Notes under the pieces: model-generated
Database searches by the model: none
The model's input: only the letters and a program-made list of their open reading frames with translations
Told to the model about the DNA's origin: nothing
Assembly: GCA_963662465.1 (NCBI GenBank)
Contig: OY759599.1
Location: 1,472,001 to 1,536,000 of the forward strand
Direction of reading: 5' to 3'
Source: Desulfatiglandales bacterium
Lineage (GTDB): Bacteria > Desulfobacterota > DSM-4660 > Desulfatiglandales > Desulfatiglandaceae
Length of the DNA stretch: 64,000 bases
Made by a program: the position numbers and the translations under genes
In this document: piece after piece, positions 482 through 11,898 of the stretch
Position numbering within the stretch: the first letter of the stretch is position 1
Layout: each line of letters begins with the position of its first letter

Positions 482-635
482 TTTGAACACGATTCACAGG
501 ATTAAATACGATTCACAGGATTAGAAGATGGCGGCCCGGCAAATTTCTCCTCGTCATGGGGAGACCTTTTTGTTTGCGGTTTATCGCCCAAGGGTAATCC
601 TGTCCATCATTATAATCTTCTAAATCGTGTTCAAA
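482..635. repeat. Solo 154-bp empty copy of the GxxExxY-associated inverted-repeat element
   Basis: Begins TTTGAACACGATT, ends AATCGTGTTCAAA; colinear with array units at 8063-10531 and with both arms of 10532-11046. Confidence 0.95.
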
Positions 636-2611: not shown

Positions 2612-5600
2612 TTATTCCAGGATCTTCATCCCTTCTGGAATTTTCATTCTGATCATCATACCATTTCCCTGCGTACTCTCACATGAAATCTTCCCCCTGA
2701 GGCTCTGGGTCACCAGGTTATGCACAATGTGCATCCCCAGCCCGCTTCCCCCCTGGGAGCGTTTGGTGGTGAAGAACGGATCAAAGATCTTGTTCAAATC
2801 TTTTTCGTTCATCCCCTTGCCGTTGTCCCGGTAGGTCAATATGATGGAACCGTTATCTTCTGTAGCGTCAAAACTGATTTCGCCCGCTTCCATTTCGTCA
2901 AAGCCATGAATCAGGGAATTCATCACCAGGTTTGAGATAATCTGGGAAAAGGCGCCGGGGTAACTATTCAATGTCAGCGCTTCCGGGCAGTTGACGGTAA
3001 CCAGGTGCTTTGTTTTCTTCAGTTTCGGTTTCAGGCTCAAGAGCACATCTTCGATATAGGCCTTGAGAGTAAACTCGCGGCGTTCGCCGCTGGTCTGGTC
3101 TACCGCCACCTGTTTGAAGCCCTGCACGATTTTCACCGCGCCGCTCAGGTTCTTGAGGATCAGGTTGGAGGAATCGCCGGCGGTTTTGGCATAGCTGTTC
3201 AGGTCGGAACGTTTCAGCTTTTGGGCTGCCACTTTTGCCACGAATTCCTGTGTTTTGTCTTCCAGGTGGGATGCGGCGGTCACGGCGATGCCGATGGGCG
3301 TATTGACTTCATGGGCAACCCCCGCCACCAAGCCCCCCAAAGCTGCCATTTTCTCGGATTGCACCAGTTGCGCCTGGGTCTTCTGGATGGTGTCGAGGGA
3401 TTGCTTCAGTTCCGTTGTTCTTTCCTCCACTTTTTCTTCCAGGGTTTTGGAATAGTCCTGCTGCTGTTTGTACAGGTCCGCGTTTTCAAGGGAGATGGCC
3501 GCCTGAGAGCAGAGCAGTGGAAGGACTTCAAGGCGCTCCGGGGTGAATGCGCCCGTTGCCAGGTTGTTTTCAAGATAGATGATGCCGCTCAAATTGTTTC
3601 GATGGATCAACGGGGCGCATAATAGGGATTTGGGTTGATGGTTCATGATGTAGGGGTCAGTGGTGAACTTCCCTTGGTGGGCGGCATCCTCAAGGACAAG
3701 GTTTTCGTTGACCCGGGCAACGTATTGAATGATGGTGACTGGCACGTTTGGAGAATCTTCCAGAGGAACGGACTGAAGCACCTGAACCTTTTCCTGATGG
3801 ATATGACCTTCGGCCTCGATCCGGAAATCCCCGTCTGATTTCAGGATCAGGCAGCCTTTTTCAGCACCCGCATTTTCAATGATGATCTGCATCATGCGGG
3901 AAAGGAGTTTCTCGATCTGGATTTCCCCTGATATCACCTGGGAGGCTTTCATGACGGAGGTCAGATCAAGCTGTTCGCCTTTAAGCTGGTTGCTGGTGGT
4001 GGTGATGGTTGTTGCATGGCCGGGTTTCCGGTCTTTATCATTGGTGGATGCTTGTGACGTTTTGGTCGAAACAACAGCCAGCAGTTCAGGGTAATTTATG
4101 TCCAGATGATCCACTTTTGCCCTGGCGCCCCAATGGTCATAGCAATACCTGGCTTCTGTCATATACTTTCGGGCGGTCTCGGTTTCTCCCTTTTCCAGGT
4201 AAAATTTTGCGGCCAACTCATTGGTCAGGGCTTCTTCCTGGATGTACTGGTTTTCCTTGGCTCCGGCGATGGCCTGGTTGTAGAAAGCAATGGCTTTCTC
4301 ATCTTTTCCGAGAACTCTCGCTCGTTCGGCCTCCACCAGTTGCCATTTGTGGAGATAATTCATTGGGGCGTGATAAGCCCATTTTTTCATCTTTTTTTGG
4401 TTTTTGGCAACTTTTCGAAGGATGAGTTTTTGGTTGGTTATTGGAGTTCCAGAGAACAGTGCCAATTGGGTCAGGGAATCGTAGAAATGGAAAACGACAA
4501 ATGGCACCATGCCTGTTACAGCAACTAAATGCTTTTCTGTATTTCCGGCATTATTAGCTGCCTGATCGTATTGCTGGAATAGATAACAAAGGATAAGTTT
4601 ATTCAAATACAAACCGCAAGTTCCAGTTTTATCATTTTCTTCTTGATAAAGCTTTAGTATTCTTTTTTCATCAAAAGCATCTCCAGTTAATATTGTAGGA
4701 TCTTCATTGTAACCCATCAAATTCAATACTACCTGCAAAGCCCTTTGGTTAAGAAATAGAAATGGTTTTTGCCCTAATTTTCTAATAGCATTGTTGTATT
4801 TGGATATATTTTGCTCAATCGTTAATAATTCTATTCCAGCAAAATAAGAATAAAGTGAGTAATTAAACGCGTTACTGGCAGCATCTTCCAAAGCCCCAAT
4901 TTCAAGGCTTTTTTGGAATCCCGTTTTGAATGGTTCTAACGATTCCCTGACATGTCTTTTCCAATGTTTAATATGACAATTAAATCCAAATTGGGCTTTT
5001 ACGTCTGCTGATTTGGCATTGAGTTTTTCTGATAACCGTACTCCCAACTTTCCGAATTCGAAACCGGATTTTATATCTCCTATGCCCCCGCATAGAATAG
5101 CGCCATATGCGGTATATGAACCACTTGATTCTGGAGCATTACCGTATTTGACGGATAGATTTATACCTGAAAAGACTAGAAATGGATAAAGCTCGGGCGC
5201 AGAAAAATAAACAGAGTTGCTCATACTTGTTCCAATACGCATCGCGGCAAACTTATAAGGATCAGTCATTTCCGGAAGGTTGATTAAAAACTCAGGTTGT
5301 TTTCCAAGCAAAGCGAATCTTGTTCTCAGATAGGCGGCCAAAAGATTCAATTTGGTCGGTTTTTGGGGGACAGTCATGCCTAAGAGCTTTGAAACATGAA
5401 GCCCGATCTTTACAGCATCCAGCAGCTTATGTTGCGCCGTATAGGCTTGAATCTTTACATCGTAAGTTTTTATCTTATCCAGCACGGTTTTTGCGTGCTG
5501 CAAGACTATCTCTGCCAAATCCCCCATCTCCTCATAGTCGCCGCAAAGAAAAGCTGCTTCTGCTGCTTCCTCGTGGAGCGTCAGAGTTAAGCCATATTGC

Positions 5601-8014
5601 ACCTGCCAGCTATCTTCTCGAAGCATTCCTATGCCGGATTTCAGGTAATCAAATGCCGGCACATAAGCCGCAGAAAGTTTCGCTTTTTTACCGGCAAGAA
5701 GATTTAATTGCGCAAGTTTTTCCCGTTCCTCTTCATCTGTCATCAATTCAGAACTTAAATTGAGTTGATCAACTACCGCCAAGATCTGCTCTTCAAGCTC
5801 CTCTTCAGAAATCCTCTTCAGCATCTCCCTGCCGATTTGCAGATGCACTTCCGGTCTCTCTTTTTCTTCAATCAGGGAATAGGCTGCCTGTTGTACCCGG
5901 TCGTGCAGAAATTTGTACACGGGAGATAGATGGTCACGGTCGGAAATCTTATCAGAAGTTGGAGATTTAAGCGGAGAAGAAATATACTTGTACGATTCAT
6001 CCACCGGCAGGACCAATTCCTCCTGCAATGCCGGCAATAAATCATCCGCCGTCTCCTGAACCGGTTTTTCATACACAATGGAGAGGGTGTTTAAATCAAA
6101 TCGATTTCCGATACAGGCTGCAAGGCTGAGAAGATGCCCGGTATTCCCTGATAATTTTTGAATCTTGCTGACCATCAAATCAACGACATTATCGGTAATA
6201 TCGGTTTGCCTGATTCTCTCCTCATCCCACTGCCAGATTCCTTCATCGCTATTAAAAAAAATCAGCCCGTCCTGATACAGGGAATGGATGAACTGGTTCA
6301 GAAAGAAAGGATTCCCCCGGGTTTTGGCAAAGCATAACCCGGCAAGGGGGTTTGATCGCTCCGGATCGCACGAAAAAGTTTCCGACAGGAGCTGGTTGAC
6401 GTGGGTTTCCATCAGCAATTGCAGTGGGATGGTTTCAACTTCCGCCCCGCTTTTTTCGATTTCCTCAATGGTCCGCATCAAAGGGTGGGCAGGGTCCACT
6501 TCATTGTCCCGATAAGCGCCGATGAGATAGAGATATTCCGCTTTTACGGTGATGAACATCTCGATCAGTTTCAGGGACGCCGCATCCGCCCATTGGAGGT
6601 CATCCAGGAAAATCACCAGGGGGTGATCTTCGGCGGCAAAGGTGTTGATAAAGTTTTCAAAGACATAGTTGAACCGGTTCACATTCTCCGTGGGACCCAG
6701 CGTCGGGACTTCCGGCTGGCTGCCGATAATCAGCTCCAGCTCCGGGATGACCTCGATCATCACCCGGCCGTTGGGGCCTAACGCTTTTAACAATTTCTCT
6801 TTCCAGGTGGATATCTGCGCGTCGCTTTCAGACAGAATCTGCCGGATCAATTGCTGAAAGGCCTGGATCAGGGGAACGTATGGGGTGCTCTTTTTTAACT
6901 GGTCGAATTTGCCTGAAATGAAATATCTCTTCTTACTTTTTGCGGTCAGGGGATTTTGCGTCTGTTGTGTCAGGGGCCGTTGAACTTCATGCACCAGGGC
7001 GGATTTGCCGATACCCGCCGGACCCGTCACCAACACCATTTTGCAGGCGCCCCGGCTTACCTCGTCAAAACCTGACAACAGGGTGTTGATTTCAGCTTCC
7101 CGGCCATAGAGTTTTTGCGGAATCCGAAGCCTGTCCGAGATATCCTTTTGCCCGATTTCAAAGGGCTCTATTTTCCCTGAACCTTCGAGCCTGTCCAGGC
7201 ATTGCCGCAAATCGTGCTGAATCCCAAAGGCCCCCTGATAGCGGTCTTCCGCATCCTTTGCCATGAGCTTCAGGATGATATCCGATAGGACCGGTGGGAT
7301 TGCGGCGTTGATTTTATGCGGCGGTTCAGGCATCAATGCCAGATGGGCATGCACCAGTTCAATGGGTTCCGTGGACAGGAAAGGCAGTCGGCCGGTGAAC
7401 AATTCGTAGAGCGTTACACCAAAGGAATAGAAGTCCGTTCGCCAGTCCACCAGGCGGTTCATGCGGCCGGTTTGTTCCGGGGACATGTAGGGCAGGGTGG
7501 CCGTCATCAGCATGGAACGTTCGACGGTGGGGGTTTCCCGGGAGATGATACTGGCCGAGCTGAAATCCATCAGTTTCAGGACGCCGGTTTCAGGGTTATA
7601 GAGGATGTTGGAAGGTTTGATATCTTTGTGGATGATGTGCGCCTGATAGATTTCGCCTAACGCTGATGCGGTTTTGACGGCGATCTCTAAAAACTGATCA
7701 ACTTTCAAGGCCTCTGATTTTTGCGGGGTTTTAAGATCAGCGCCGCCGGAGTCCTCCAATACCAGGTAGGGCCGGTGGTCATGCATGATGAGATCCATCA
7801 CTTTAACTACACCTTCTAACCCATTGGCTTTAAAGGTCTTCAGAACATTATATTCATGGCTGTAGCGTGCCGTTTCATGGGGAGAGGGGTGGGCGCTTGC
7901 GGTGGTTTTCAGGATAACCGGTTGGTTGTCATCGGTGTTTACGGCACGATAGACGTGGGTGTTGGCACCTTGGTATAGGGTGTCAGTAATGTCAAAATCC
8001 TTGAACTCGGTCAT
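2612..8014 (-). CDS. Ser/Thr kinase - AAA ATPase - helical repeats - GAF - histidine kinase (1800 aa)
   Basis: HKDIKPSN, YMSPEQ, Walker A GPAGIGKS, Walker B IFLDD, H-box AHEVNTP, DNGKG, GSGLG. Confidence 0.95.
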   Translation of the reverse strand: MTEFKDFDITDTLYQGANTHVYRAVNTDDNQPVILKTTASAHPSPHETARYSHEYNVLKTFKANGLEGVVKVMDLIMHDHRPYLVLEDSGGADLKTPQKSEALKVDQFLEIAVKTASALGEIYQAHIIHKDIKPSNILYNPETGVLKLMDFSSASIISRETPTVERSMLMTATLPYMSPEQTGRMNRLVDWRTDFYSFGVTLYELFTGRLPFLSTEPIELVHAHLALMPEPPHKINAAIPPVLSDIILKLMAKDAEDRYQGAFGIQHDLRQCLDRLEGSGKIEPFEIGQKDISDRLRIPQKLYGREAEINTLLSGFDEVSRGACKMVLVTGPAGIGKSALVHEVQRPLTQQTQNPLTAKSKKRYFISGKFDQLKKSTPYVPLIQAFQQLIRQILSESDAQISTWKEKLLKALGPNGRVMIEVIPELELIIGSQPEVPTLGPTENVNRFNYVFENFINTFAAEDHPLVIFLDDLQWADAASLKLIEMFITVKAEYLYLIGAYRDNEVDPAHPLMRTIEEIEKSGAEVETIPLQLLMETHVNQLLSETFSCDPERSNPLAGLCFAKTRGNPFFLNQFIHSLYQDGLIFFNSDEGIWQWDEERIRQTDITDNVVDLMVSKIQKLSGNTGHLLSLAACIGNRFDLNTLSIVYEKPVQETADDLLPALQEELVLPVDESYKYISSPLKSPTSDKISDRDHLSPVYKFLHDRVQQAAYSLIEEKERPEVHLQIGREMLKRISEEELEEQILAVVDQLNLSSELMTDEEEREKLAQLNLLAGKKAKLSAAYVPAFDYLKSGIGMLREDSWQVQYGLTLTLHEEAAEAAFLCGDYEEMGDLAEIVLQHAKTVLDKIKTYDVKIQAYTAQHKLLDAVKIGLHVSKLLGMTVPQKPTKLNLLAAYLRTRFALLGKQPEFLINLPEMTDPYKFAAMRIGTSMSNSVYFSAPELYPFLVFSGINLSVKYGNAPESSGSYTAYGAILCGGIGDIKSGFEFGKLGVRLSEKLNAKSADVKAQFGFNCHIKHWKRHVRESLEPFKTGFQKSLEIGALEDAASNAFNYSLYSYFAGIELLTIEQNISKYNNAIRKLGQKPFLFLNQRALQVVLNLMGYNEDPTILTGDAFDEKRILKLYQEENDKTGTCGLYLNKLILCYLFQQYDQAANNAGNTEKHLVAVTGMVPFVVFHFYDSLTQLALFSGTPITNQKLILRKVAKNQKKMKKWAYHAPMNYLHKWQLVEAERARVLGKDEKAIAFYNQAIAGAKENQYIQEEALTNELAAKFYLEKGETETARKYMTEARYCYDHWGARAKVDHLDINYPELLAVVSTKTSQASTNDKDRKPGHATTITTTSNQLKGEQLDLTSVMKASQVISGEIQIEKLLSRMMQIIIENAGAEKGCLILKSDGDFRIEAEGHIHQEKVQVLQSVPLEDSPNVPVTIIQYVARVNENLVLEDAAHQGKFTTDPYIMNHQPKSLLCAPLIHRNNLSGIIYLENNLATGAFTPERLEVLPLLCSQAAISLENADLYKQQQDYSKTLEEKVEERTTELKQSLDTIQKTQAQLVQSEKMAALGGLVAGVAHEVNTPIGIAVTAASHLEDKTQEFVAKVAAQKLKRSDLNSYAKTAGDSSNLILKNLSGAVKIVQGFKQVAVDQTSGERREFTLKAYIEDVLLSLKPKLKKTKHLVTVNCPEALTLNSYPGAFSQIISNLVMNSLIHGFDEMEAGEISFDATEDNGSIILTYRDNGKGMNEKDLNKIFDPFFTTKRSQGGSGLGMHIVHNLVTQSLRGKISCESTQGNGMMIRMKIPEGMKILE

Positions 8015-8062
8015 GTTCAGCTCCGTGTTTGAGGTCGTCCGTTTTTTTTAAGATGCAAGCGT

Positions 8063-10531
8063 TTTGAACACGATTCACAGGATTTAACAAGATGAACAGG
8101 ATTAGAAGATGACGTCCCGGCAATTTTCTTATTGTCATGGGGAAACCTTCTTGTTTGCGGTCTATCGGCGAAGAGTATAATCCTGTCCATCATCATAATC
8201 TTTTAAATCGTGTTCAAACAGCGCCCCGTTCATGATGCAATCCAGCTTCGTTGTTCCTCCCCGTTCTGAACACGATTCACAGGATTTAACACGATGAACA
8301 GGATTAGAAGATGAGGTCCCGACAATTTTCTTATTGTCATGGGGAAACCTTCTTGTTTGCGGTCTATCGGCGAAGAGTATAATCCTGTCCATCATCATAA
8401 TCTTTTAAATCGTGTTCAAACAGCGCCCCGTTCATGATGCAATCCAGCTTCGTTGTTCCTCCCCATTCTGAACACGATTCACAGGATTAAATACGATGAA
8501 CAGGATTAGAAGATGAGGTCCCGACAATTTTCTTATTGTCATGGGGAAACCTTCTTGTTTGCGGTCTATCGGCGAAGAGTATAATCCTGTCTATCATCAT
8601 AATCTTTTAAATCGTGTTCAAACAGCCTCCCCGTTCATGATGCCATCCAGCTTCGTTGTTCCTCCCCATTCTGAACACGATTCACAGGATTTAACACGAT
8701 GAACAGGATTAGAAGATGAGGTCCCGACAATTTTCTTATTGTCATGGAGAAACCTTCTTGTTTGCGGTCTATCGGCGAAGAGTATAATCCTGTCCATCAT
8801 CATAATCTTTTAAATCGTGTTCAAACAGCCTCCCCGTTCATGATGCCATCCAGCTTCGTTGTTCCTCCCCATTCTGAACACGATTCACAGGATTTAACAC
8901 GATGAACAGGATTAGAAGATGAGGTCCCGACAATTTTCTTATTGTCATGGGGAAACCTTCTTGTTTGCGGTCTATCGGCGAAGAGTATAATCCTGTCTAT
9001 CATCATAATCTTTTAAATCGTGTTCAAACAGCCTCCCCGTTCATGATGCCATCCAGCTTCGTTGTTCCTCCCCATTCTGAACACGATTCACAGGATTTAA
9101 CACGATGAACAGGATTAGAAGATGAGGTCCCGACAATTTTCTTATTGTCATGGGGAAACCTTCTTGTTTGCGGTCTATCGGCGAAGAGTATAATCCTGTC
9201 TATCATCATAATCTTTTAAATCGTGTTCAAACAGCCTCCCCGTACGATGAACAGGATTAGAAGATGAGGTCCCGACAATTTTCTTAGATGCCATCCAGCT
9301 TCGTTGTTCCTCCCCATCTTGAACACGATTCACAGGATTAAATACGATGAACAGGATTAGAAGATGAGGTCCCGACAATTTTCTTATTGTCATGGGGAAA
9401 CCTTCTTGTTTGCGGTCTATCGGCGAAGAGTATAATCCTGTCTATCATCATAATCTTTTAAATCGTGTTCAAACAGCCTCCCCGTTCATGATGCCATCCA
9501 GCTTCGTTGTTCCTCCCCATTCTGAACACGATTCACAGGATTTAACACGATGAACAGGATTAGAAGATGAGGTCCCGACAATTTTCTTATTGTCATGGGG
9601 AAACCTTCTTGTTTGCGGTCTATCGGCGAAGAGTATAATCCTGTCTATCATCATAATCTTTTAAATCGTGTTCAAACAGCGCCCCGTTCATGATGCTATC
9701 CAGCTTCGTTGTTCCTCCCCATTCTGAACACGATTCACAGGATTTAACACGATGAACAGGATTAGAAGATGAGGTCCCGACAATTTTCTTATTGTCATGG
9801 GGAAACCTTCTTGTTTGCGGTCTATCGGCGAAGAGTATAATCCTGTCCATCATCATAATCTTTTAAATCGTGTTCAAACAGCGCCCCGTTCATGATGCTA
9901 TCCAGTTCGTTGTTTCTCCCCATTCTGAACACGATTCACAGGATTAAATACGATGAACAGGATTAGAAGATGAGGTCCCGACAATTTTCTTATTGTCATG
10001 GGGAAACCTTCTTGTTTGCGGTCTATCGGCGAAGAGTATAATCCTGTCCATCATCATAATCTTTTAAATCGTGTTCAAACAGCCTCCCCGTTCATGATGC
10101 CATCCAGCTTCGTTGTTCCTCCCCATCTTGAACACGATTCACAGGATTAAATACGATGAACAGGATTAGAAGATGAGGTCCCGACAATTTTCTTATTGTC
10201 ATGGGGAAACCTTCTTGTTTGCGGTCTATCGGCGAAGAGTATAATCCTGTCCATCATCATAATCTTTTAAATCGTGTTCAAACAGCGCCCCGTTCATGAT
10301 GCCATCCAGCTTCGTTGTTCCTCCCCATCTTGAACACGATTCACAGGATTTAACACGATGAACAGGATTAGAAGATGAGGTCCCGACAATTTTCTTATTG
10401 TCATGGGGAAACCTTCTTGTTTGCGGTCTATCGGCGAAGAGTATAATCCTGTCTATCATCATAATCTTTTAAATCGTGTTCAAACAGCCTCCCCGTTCAT
10501 GATGCCATCCAGCTTCGTTGTTCCTCCCCGT
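8063..10531. repeat. Tandem array of 12 near-identical units (156-bp inverted-repeat core + ~46-bp linker)
   Basis: GAACACGATTCACAGG recurs at 8066, 8268, 8470, 8673, 8876, 9079, 9321, 9524, 9726, 9927, 10130, 10332 and then 10535 (gene-bearing copy); period 201-203 bp, one of 242 bp. Confidence 0.98.
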
Positions 10532-11046
10532 TTTGAACACGATTCACAGGATTAAATACGATGAACAGGATTAGAAGACGGCGTCCCAACAAGTTTCTTG
10601 TTGTAAAGCCGTTTAAATTCAAGGCTCCGTCCTCCGAAATTCATCAACAATCCATCGGAAATTCCATAGGCTTCCAGATAATTGATAGCCTGTGCCTTGT
10701 GAGCATCTTGCAGTTTTTCCACAGCTTTCAATTCAACCATCACACGATGGTCAACAAAAAAATCGACCCTTCTCGTTCCGATTTGTTTATTGCGATAAAA
10801 TATCGGCATTTCCTTTTCACGCGCAAAGGATAACCCCTGAAAAGTCATTTCAATCGCCAGGGCGCGTTGATAAATCACCTCTTGGAATCCATTGCCGAGC
10901 GAACTGTGAACCTTCATCGCGCAACCGATGACCACATGCGTCAATTCGTTAATCCCGTCACTCGTCATGGTGAGACCTTTTTGTTTGCGGTTTATTGGTC
11001 AATGGTAATCCTGTCTGTCATTATAATCTTTAAAATCGTATTCAAA
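10532..11046. mobile_element. Gene-bearing copy of the element: inverted-repeat arms enclosing the GxxExxY gene
   Basis: Left arm 10532-10604 and right arm 10966-11046 match the two halves of the array core; mobility is inferred, not shown. Confidence 0.65.
10552..10968 (-). CDS. GxxExxY protein (PD-(D/E)XK nuclease-like)
   Basis: 138 aa; GFQEVIY motif, RVDFFV...VELKA catalytic-type motif, QAINYL. Confidence 0.93.
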   Translation of the reverse strand: MTSDGINELTHVVIGCAMKVHSSLGNGFQEVIYQRALAIEMTFQGLSFAREKEMPIFYRNKQIGTRRVDFFVDHRVMVELKAVEKLQDAHKAQAINYLEAYGISDGLLMNFGGRSLEFKRLYNKKLVGTPSSNPVHRI

Positions 11047-11198
11047 CAGCATAATTTATACCTTTTCAAATTGAAAAGAAATTGCAAAATTCAAAACGAT
11101 CGTCAGGTGTAAAATGAAAAGGACCATGGAAAAGGTGATGACCTGCTTTTTACCGTATCTGTGTAGCAAGAAACCAAAGACGATCCAACAGATGTCCA

Positions 11199-11234
11199 TT
11201 GACTTCAACCTCGCCTTGCATTACGGTATGTAAT
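11199..11234 (+). promoter_or_regulatory. Putative sigma70 promoter and operator of vapBC
   Basis: TTGACT-17 bp-TACGGT, overlapped by inverted repeat ATTAC-N5-GTAAT; RBS GGAGG follows. Confidence 0.5.
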
Positions 11235-11248
11235 ACGGAGGGGATAAA

Positions 11249-11491
11249 ATGATCACACTAAGATTAGAAGAAAAATTAGAGCAAGATATAAATAATACAG
11301 CGAAAAACTTGGGACTGACAAAATCCGAACTGATTCGCCAAAGCATCCATGACTATCTTCAGAAGCTTCAAAAACCAAATGCGTGGGAGTTAGGCGAAGA
11401 TTTGTTTGGTAAATACTCAAGCGGCCTTGGAAATTTGTCGGAAAACCGGAAAGAGCTGATGAAAGAAAAAATAAAGGCTAAAGGAAAATGA
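11249..11491 (+). CDS. vapB: Ribbon-helix-helix (CopG-type) antitoxin
   Basis: MITLRL...TKSELIRQSI RHH pattern; ATGA overlap with PIN gene. Confidence 0.8.
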   Translation: MITLRLEEKLEQDINNTAKNLGLTKSELIRQSIHDYLQKLQKPNAWELGEDLFGKYSSGLGNLSENRKELMKEKIKAKGK

Positions 11492-11898
11492 AAAAAATCC
11501 TCATAGATTCCGGTCCGTTAATTGCCTTGTTTGATGCATCGGATAAATATTATCATAAAACAGTTAATTTTATACAATCAAATAAATATCCGCTTGTTAC
11601 AACGCTTGCATCAATCACGGAAACGCTCCACTTGTTGGACTTTAATCGAAATGCACAGATAGATTTCCTCGTGTGGATTGATAAAGGGGCCATTGAAATT
11701 CAACATATTGACAGCAGTGATTTTGGAAGACTCAAAGAATTAACTGAAAAGTATCGGGATTTGCCAATGGATTTTGCGGATGCTTGTCTGCTATATCTTG
11801 CGGAAAAACAGAGCCTGAACACCATTGCAACGATTGATCGGGATTTTACAATTTATCGAATAGGTGGTAAAAAGAAATTCAAGGTTGTTCTTTCTTAA
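11488..11898 (+). CDS. vapC: PIN-domain toxin
   Basis: ILIDSGPLIA, ITET, MDFADA, TIDRDF. Confidence 0.9.
   Translation: MKKILIDSGPLIALFDASDKYYHKTVNFIQSNKYPLVTTLASITETLHLLDFNRNAQIDFLVWIDKGAIEIQHIDSSDFGRLKELTEKYRDLPMDFADACLLYLAEKQSLNTIATIDRDFTIYRIGGKKKFKVVLS

Follow-up and report, generated by a model that had tools for sequence, protein, structure and literature searches.

Why should a small gene of the GxxExxY family stand at the head of twelve tandem copies of what looks like its own gene-less shell? The question is raised by a 64,000-nucleotide stretch of Desulfatiglandales bacterium DNA (contig OY759599.1, positions 1,472,001 to 1,536,000 of the forward strand, referred to here as the window), in which a 515-bp unit bounded by inverted arms and encoding a 138-residue predicted nuclease adjoins an array of short hairpin-forming units. 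We propose, with a probability of roughly 0.6, that gene and repeats form a selfish nuclease-repeat partnership similar to REP/RAYT or NTS/Ssn but with a PD-(D/E)XK enzyme, and that the array is a by-product of local amplification and not a store of guides. The real value of the locus lies in the cassette family, the 12-unit array being most likely a local overgrowth.

The components of the locus are as follows. We refer to the 8.16-Mb genome from which the window comes as G000, and to two relatives of the same genus as G010 and G004.

10532..11046, minus strand: gene-bearing cassette of 515 bp, consisting of a 5′ arm, a short leader, the gene and a 3′ arm.
10552..10968, minus strand: GxxExxY gene, 138 aa, with a predicted minimal PD-(D/E)XK nuclease fold (profile matches, invariant residues and structure model).
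11005..11046, minus strand: 5′ arm, with an outer tag TTTGAAC and three GATT words.
10532..10573, plus strand: 3′ arm, an inverted copy of the 5′ arm, 74% complementary to it.
8063..10531, minus strand: tandem array of 12 gene-less units, each a 156-bp core plus a 45-47-bp linker (repeat analysis and read depth).
8063..8218, minus strand: terminal core (unit 1), with diagnostic bases and both flanks in common with a single unit in G010.
9244..9286, plus strand: 43-bp copy of arm/core DNA in the linker of unit 6, replacing 4 bp, as assembled.
10485..10531, no strand: last copy of the linker, with ~33 bp of one dispersed-element flank and ~14 bp of the opposite flank.

A preliminary description, made from the DNA letters alone, placed the GxxExxY gene in a 515-bp unit heading 12 tandem gene-less copies, and this is borne out by the coordinates, by Tandem Repeats Finder (period 203, 12.3 copies), by profile matches and by read depth. 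The open reading frame (ORF) of the gene extends into the cassette's own 3′ arm, and when 361 bp (10605-10965) are excised the remaining 154 bp can be aligned over their full length with the core – which has two extra bases – as had been described. At the deletion joint, which has 2 nt of microhomology, the core retains the gene's start codon together with its last codons. The imperfect inverted ends are likewise as described, with arms of 41-42 bp that can form a hairpin; their complementarity is 74% in the gene unit and 79-81% in the cores. Judged by these alignments the cores are deletion derivatives of this cassette family. However, they share 85-87% identity with the adjacent gene unit and 88-92% with two gene-less units in G010, and thus are not fresh deletions of this very gene; the twelve-fold repetition stands, but the repeated unit is the core together with its linker. 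Units start at 8063, 8265, 8467, 8670, 8873, 9076, 9318, 9521, 9723, 9924, 10127 and 10329, and are 201-203 bp long with the exception of unit 6 (242 bp); their mean pairwise identity is 97.5%, and variants at four dimorphic sites are combined in them as a mosaic. The array also contains short ORFs of 61-78 aa, which we set aside as read-through of the repeats, and a promoter and terminator scan of 10450-11300 gave no match.

Sequencing reads bear on whether twelve copies were merely produced by the assembly. In two runs of one sample (X1 and X2), possibly the source of the assembly, a 177-nt array contig is 8.5 times (317/37.3) and 7.8 times (327/42.1) as deep as single-copy DNA, against a ratio of 8.76 expected from 31-mer multiplicity in the assembly. 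Core-linker-core contigs are also present in a different sample (X3; 233 nt, 1 difference) and in a different study (X8; 185 nt, 0 differences) and show at least two tandem units in those samples, and the linker is the same in G010. No read or contig spans the whole array, and the read evidence concerns copy number rather than the order of variants or the 43-bp insert; with the depth ratios set against this, we consider an assembly artefact very improbable. X8 is an RNA run in which the one array contig has a depth of 2.3, which is not proof of transcription.

The gene product belongs to both PF13366 (133.5 bits, cut-off 22) and TIGR04256 (136.5 bits, cut-off 35), matching over the whole profile, and profile searches returned these families only, with no HUH Y1, GIY-YIG or recognised transposase family. 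PF13366 is large – a search of representatives gave 15,712 clusters at 50% identity – and is present in 51 of 151 genomes sampled from the phylum of the source; the available part of one published table gives its function as unknown and reports multiple transfers (PMC3424549). Across 117 sequences E30, D69, E79, K81 and Q93 are invariant and Y97 is nearly so. We take these residues to correspond to the E, D, ExK and QxxxY motifs of RecB/Cas4-type nucleases. A structure model of the 138-aa protein has a pLDDT of 87, and nearly all of its top fold matches are PD-(D/E)XK or related folds, led in Foldseek by Cas4 SSO0001 (E 2.8e-3, TM 0.52) and in VIA-align by R.SwaI (Z 8.0, rmsd 3.4, 116 aligned). 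The fold searches gave no match at E <= 0.001, no Z above 8.0 and no family standing out, and scores this low do not pick a nuclease subfamily; a sequence search of the PDB gave a single, unrelated match (E 1.5). The protein, as modelled, has a PD-(D/E)XK core fold and is a predicted nuclease. Some natural proteins have two GxxExxY domains per chain (P0133, P0143, P0149, P0152, P0156, P0170 and P0173), and in several of these one half has no ExK motif, which may mirror an asymmetric dimer.

Are the arms a property of the gene, or of this genome? Among the best 80 of 591 homologues in genome contigs (57-76% identity, mostly Bacteroidota), 72 carry this arm within 250-280 bp of the gene, compared with 11 of 262 control windows, and homologues from other phyla in this range of identity have the arm of the window gene. 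Conversely, seven GxxExxY loci of G000 that are placed on the protein tree carry five different arm words. The tree has 81 rows, 26 of them from the window's clade (the window protein and a subsample of the 80); an arm word was assignable in 75, the six unlabelled rows being dropped, and fell into nine classes by simple rules that leave a few labels wrong. Arm class changes 16 times on the tree, compared with a shuffled mean of 47.4 (minimum 42, n=75), and 16 times compared with 34.6 when the over-sampled clade is reduced to one row (n=55). These distributions show that it is the protein, and not the host, that the arms follow. Within the window's clade, one subgroup rich in Mucilaginibacter has GAATT in place of GATT in all words of both arms.

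Gene-less copies are not confined to the array. The arm pattern has 72 matches in G000 and none in reversed or complemented sequence, so these are not chance matches; 26 are in the array and gene unit and 46 elsewhere, none of the latter inside an ORF of at least 150 aa. The relatives have arms too (17 in G010 and 6 in G004). Twenty-six of the 46 dispersed arms form 13 pairs. Twelve of these pairs are gene-less elements, and the thirteenth, with the same arms, encloses a second copy of the gene (G000:6955021-6955540). Its gene is intact and 87% identical to the window gene in amino-acid sequence (dN 0.040, dS 0.147, dN/dS about 0.27); dS against L031 is saturated. The empty elements differ in how much of the gene start they retain, which points to more than one deletion, and many have common outer flanks and are mosaics with other repeats. 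A sediment metagenome contig (L134) contains the same composite in another context, and a metagenome scan with a strict arm pattern gave one locus, with a single empty element and no array. One dispersed copy is in the window itself:

482..635, minus strand: dispersed gene-less element copy, 86-88% identical to the array cores.

Several other repeats accompany these copies. A 22-bp motif forms direct repeats around several empty elements and also occurs apart from them (28 matches; e.g. G000 487800 and 488043); it often adjoins other palindromic repeats in BIME-like mosaics, and the same composite is found in L134. The second gene unit belongs to a cluster at G000:C1:6950146-6955540 with five arms, a truncated GxxExxY copy and small toxin-antitoxin-like ORFs, and a 439-aa ORF between arms of this cluster looks, by its sequence, like a reverse transcriptase. 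Arms of a CATGAAG class have 22 matches in G000 and form seven hairpin pairs (e.g. 415868-416028), yet this class is on none of the seven tree-placed loci; these could be orphan empties, or have another partner.

The clearest view of cassettes at a single place comes from the junction of leuC and leuD in Mucilaginibacter, for which we compared the best 30 of 58 genomes with a match. Seventeen of these loci contain the cassette, four are bare and nine have other inserts. Cassette presence changes 9 times on a weakly supported host tree compared with 10.0 when shuffled, and so shows no clustering. The arm begins within the last codons of leuC and in several cases provides the leuC stop codon, and the bare leuC end itself resembles an arm. 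Downstream of the 3′ arm, an ORF of at least 60 aa has its ATG no more than 4 nt away at 18 of 51 loci. One leuC-leuD cassette (L177) was probably assigned to the wrong type, and we give no weight to a division of these cassettes into two types. The other inserts at leuC-leuD (L167-L196) include a small monooxygenase-like gene, heptamer hairpins and TGTCATTGCGAG-type hairpins; the junction is a hot spot common to several repeat families. The search of viral contigs gave one homologue, with arms, that of annotated phages none, and that of plasmids 8 among 72,556 records, so the cassette is not a phage or plasmid passenger in those collections. The suggestion of an autonomous element with non-autonomous copies, comparable to RAYT/REP but with a different enzyme, is therefore upheld in its dispersed empties, second gene unit, clade-following arms and patchily occupied orthologous site; mobilisation by the enzyme is the part that we infer.

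What would such an enzyme recognise? Each arm is a non-palindromic tag followed by three words of 8-10 bp, and it takes two arms to form a hairpin. In 45 arm pairs the tag and first two GATT words are paired in 84-100% of cases (87-100% for the two words alone) and the bases between words in only 27-58%, figures that overstate independence because the arm pairs are related. Conserved, phased words with free spacers fit protein-binding sites. An alternative is that the arms act in RNA like those of intervening sequences, their pairing folding the gene out of an operon message for processing by a host RNase or the GxxExxY enzyme, with the array releasing unit-length RNAs. The core does fold strongly as RNA (z -5.8 on the gene strand, 0/200 shuffles as good), although the other strand folds equally well (z -5.6), and the whole 203-nt unit reaches a z of only -2.1. 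The unpaired gene-strand positions are purine-rich, with 229 purine-purine against 66 pyrimidine-pyrimidine in the 45 pairs, and 94 against 24 in 18 empty pairs, where loop composition predicts a ratio of ~1.8-fold; this A-richness may come from overlap of the arms with codons and translation signals. The strand asymmetry could reflect either that or recognition of a single-stranded fold with regular loops. Cassettes lie within operons, and tRNA-splicing endonucleases are among the weak fold matches (Z 5.2-5.9), but only the words pair, there is no G.U bias in the 45 pairs (68 G.T and 59 A.C), and the protein keeps the metal-type D..ExK residues. We therefore regard an RNA-level role as unlikely.

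Arrays recur beside other GxxExxY genes, if infrequently. Two of the best 80 homologues adjoin arrays of at least five units, downstream of the gene at L035 (114 bp x 12.8) and upstream at L097 (82 bp x 7.1), and at several further loci there are 2-3 copies; the majority of the 80 come from fragmented assemblies where arrays can collapse, such that 2/80 is a lower bound. The genome of L097 has a second array of the same units (L166; 83 bp x 4) downstream of a second gene. All strict arm-pattern matches in the genomes of L035 and L097 are at gene loci (16/16 and 15/15, respectively). Each repeat in both consists of one complete arm and a truncated opposite arm with a loop between them, and the L035 array is a mosaic of dimorphic sites like that in the window.

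The history of the window array can be read in part from the relatives, in which paralogues of the kinase gene next to the array are headed by one or two empty units. The neighbours of the locus in the window are:

2612..8014, minus strand: Ser/Thr kinase-AAA-GAF-histidine kinase gene, co-directional with the array and beginning 48 bp past it.
11249..11898, plus strand: pair of genes, one RHH antitoxin-like and one with a PIN domain, oriented divergently to the cassette and outside the element.

A tandem of two units in G010 agrees with the window array in its 203-bp period and its short linker, and G004 has tandems with a 245-bp period and a longer (~90-bp) linker, from which type, on sequence grounds, the short linker is derived by deletion. 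The linker is composed of flanks found beside dispersed elements. Unit 1 shares diagnostic bases and both flanks with a single G010 unit at the orthologous kinase, and its core is probably the oldest occupant of the array. Among units 2-12 all four gametes are present at all six pairs of the dimorphic sites, indicating repeated shuffling of the array and not growth through a single block duplication, although this is an unphased mosaic to which polishing errors could contribute. A gene of the window's clade was not found in G010 or G004 (best identity 45% and 30%; completeness 92% and 98%), and a 79% match in G008 is a 33-codon fragment with no arms in view. Empty units can thus persist, and at least duplicate, with no enzyme in view. 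The kinase genes (window 2612-8014; L121, L122 and L123) are neighbouring paralogues in G010 and G004, each headed by empties and followed by different cargo, and G000 has no upstream paralogue here; the elements may serve as recombination points. At L126:5436-6959 in G010 the 5′ arm and ~110 bp of upstream flank occur as a direct duplication on either side of 1.5 kb of cargo, which has REP-like hairpins at its beginning, and G000 has a single element at that place.

A rival account is a passive origin, in which arms and gene travel together but slippage promoted by hairpins, with RecA exchange between direct repeats, builds the array with no involvement of the enzyme. The G010 tandems are one point in its favour, and near-identical tandem REPINs that include their flanks have been described (PMC3116915, in the text available). 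Another is that G000 contains unrelated heptamer-unit arrays of 25.7 and 10.9 copies, and so readily amplifies small repeats. On the other hand, all four arrays of at least four units that were found adjoin an intact cognate gene – three of the four having come from a search near genes – and the 12 dispersed empties of G000 remain single. We think a passive origin quite possible, although a little short of an even chance. As to the heptamer arrays themselves (G000:C1:86291-88975 and 8147984-8149128), they have a 105-bp unit rich in TTTTGAG/TTTTGGG, and both follow the same 132-aa ORF in duplicated regions near the contig ends, with unequal copy number. Such duplication includes 10 kb at 99.5% identity (G000:C1:8151577-8161625 and 91899-101959) and further stretches at 95-99%, and may be true duplication or assembly overlap.

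Could the array itself do something? It lies between the nuclease gene and the co-directional kinase gene, arrays recur beside genes, and one or two units are kept ahead of the kinase paralogues in the relatives, as might be expected if the array held the nuclease in check or tuned the kinase gene, as a sink for binding or as a leader of hairpins. But matching sites have 1, 2 or 12 copies, 78 of the 80 closest homologues have no long array, and of the arrays one is upstream of its gene and three are downstream; a functional array is accordingly a decidedly poor prospect. A CRISPR-like store of guides or memory has next to no probability: the period is regular and Cas4 is the best Foldseek match, but the protein similarity is limited to the core fold, the linkers are near-identical and derive from flanks of dispersed elements, with no unique spacers, and an Rfam scan of 7900-11300 gave two chance-level matches only, far below gathering scores, and no rRNA match. 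Two ordinary CRISPR-type arrays with unique spacers are present in G000 (C1:1267235-1270813 and 7638663-7639838) and provide a contrast. The preliminary description had also advanced a nuclease/array system, and this part fares poorly, with long arrays at 2/80 homologues, none at the second G000 gene, one or two units in relatives and near-identical linkers; it is weakened further by accounts, in the available portions of two papers, of tandem repeat-hairpin arrays with flanks as a by-product of REPINs and BIMEs (PMC3116915, PMC3333891).

We therefore favour a selfish partnership in which the GxxExxY gene and its two arms would constitute a small cassette. The enzyme would recognise its own three-word arm and nick or cut DNA at or beside it, and host repair would copy or move the arm-bounded DNA into gene junctions, where arm ends can provide the upstream stop codon and sit before the downstream ATG. 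Internal deletions give rise to gene-less hairpins, which we see dispersed and persisting. At the window locus one or two gene-less hairpins would have adjoined the gene-bearing unit beforehand, and the core-plus-linker unit – whose amplification and shuffling are evident in the units – would have reached 12 copies by repeated slippage or unequal exchange between the direct-repeat arms. Cuts made by the enzyme in cis probably helped this amplification, at close to even odds.

Several observations weigh against this proposal. The arm pattern and classes were drawn by eye from the same flanks in which they were then counted, and by an inverted-repeat score that uses no motif only 35 of 101 gene flanks exceed the 95th percentile of the control windows. 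Since kin share labels, the tree count shows clustering and not co-evolution. The second intact gene unit has no array, G010 and G004 have arms and two-unit tandems with no cognate gene found, and the heptamer arrays show amplification of unrelated repeats in the same genome. No obvious target duplication is seen at the bare leuC-leuD sites, where the hosts are ~80% diverged, and comparisons of G010 (10 loci) and the metagenome contig L134 with G000 revealed no clean empty site or target duplication; these 11 comparisons gave shared elements, replaced intergenic stretches or rearrangements.

If the proposal is true, PF13366 would be a library of miniature site-specific nucleases, each with its target written beside its gene, and a common class of intergenic hairpins and their arrays would be explained. 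Were every clade to cut the arm that it carries, one could read a member's substrate from its flanks; function would be directly testable, and many small site-specific nucleases would become available, as they did with Ssn. The present locus is convenient in this regard, since one genus contains the gene, the empties, the 12-unit expansion and, in relatives, the ancestral state with two units. A literature search, with few subscription journals and with supplements outside its scope, returned no description of a GxxExxY cassette with arms, empties or arrays.

How, then, does the cassette compare with known systems? Like insertion sequences (IS) and miniature inverted-repeat transposable elements it has terminal inverted repeats around one gene and internal-deletion derivatives, and the words of its arms recall the repeated words in IS ends, as in transposase binding sites. 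It differs in having no DDE, HUH or recombinase transposase, no target duplication that we could see, and ends blurred by flanks and mosaics. Intervening sequences of 23S rRNA that bear ORFs resemble it in forming a long imperfect hairpin whose loop contains a small ORF, with a four-helix bundle as cargo, whereas the cassettes are between protein genes, not in rRNA, and their cargo has a nuclease fold.

The closer parallels are with repeats that have a dedicated enzyme. PD-(D/E)XK enzymes can only hydrolyse, such that rejoining must come from the host, whereas RAYT is an HUH Y1 transposase that both cuts and rejoins. In the REPtrons of RAYT and its repetitive extragenic palindromic (REP) sequences, as the available text of three papers describes them, gene-less doublets of inverted arms occupy intergenic space, with a repeat family per enzyme, and there are tandem arrays whose near-identical units include their flanks – with as many as 12 REP pairs and differing in number among strains – and clusters beside the enzyme gene (PMC3116915, PMC3333891, PMC3733652). 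With REPIN/BIME arrays already known, the array alone is of modest interest. The cassette departs from the REPtron in that its gene is within the doublet loop, empties keep gene remnants and the whole cassette is patchily gained or lost, whereas the same text reports REPtrons not to transpose as a unit (PMC3116915, PMC3333891, PMC3733652); its arms are a tag and three words, not a palindromic REP with a GTAG or CGTC tag. Ssn is a GIY-YIG nuclease with cognate NTS/SRM repeats for which cleavage of single-stranded DNA has been shown (Chenal et al. 2025, PMC11893778, from the text available), and it shares with the cassette a small single-domain nuclease gene, cognate inverted-repeat flanks, many dispersed gene-less repeats, repeat variants paired with enzyme variants, and an IS-like architecture of unproven mobility (PMC11893778). 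It differs in its GIY-YIG domain, where the cassette has a predicted PD-(D/E)XK nuclease, and in that each SRM is itself a 20-50-nt hairpin (PMC11893778), whereas a single cassette arm is non-palindromic and the hairpin needs two. The portions of the REP and Ssn papers available to us include models of enzyme-driven amplification (PMC11893778, PMC3116915, PMC3333891, PMC3733652). By analogy, the cassette appears to work like Ssn/NTS and RAYT/REP and to belong to neither, differing in enzyme fold and arm design. We suggest, tentatively and at somewhat less than even odds, that GxxExxY proteins represent a third and very large nuclease-repeat class beside these two, in which the ~130-residue Cas4/RecB-like nuclease of each clade would read and cut its own three-word arm, home into arm-like gene ends and amplify empty shells in cis.

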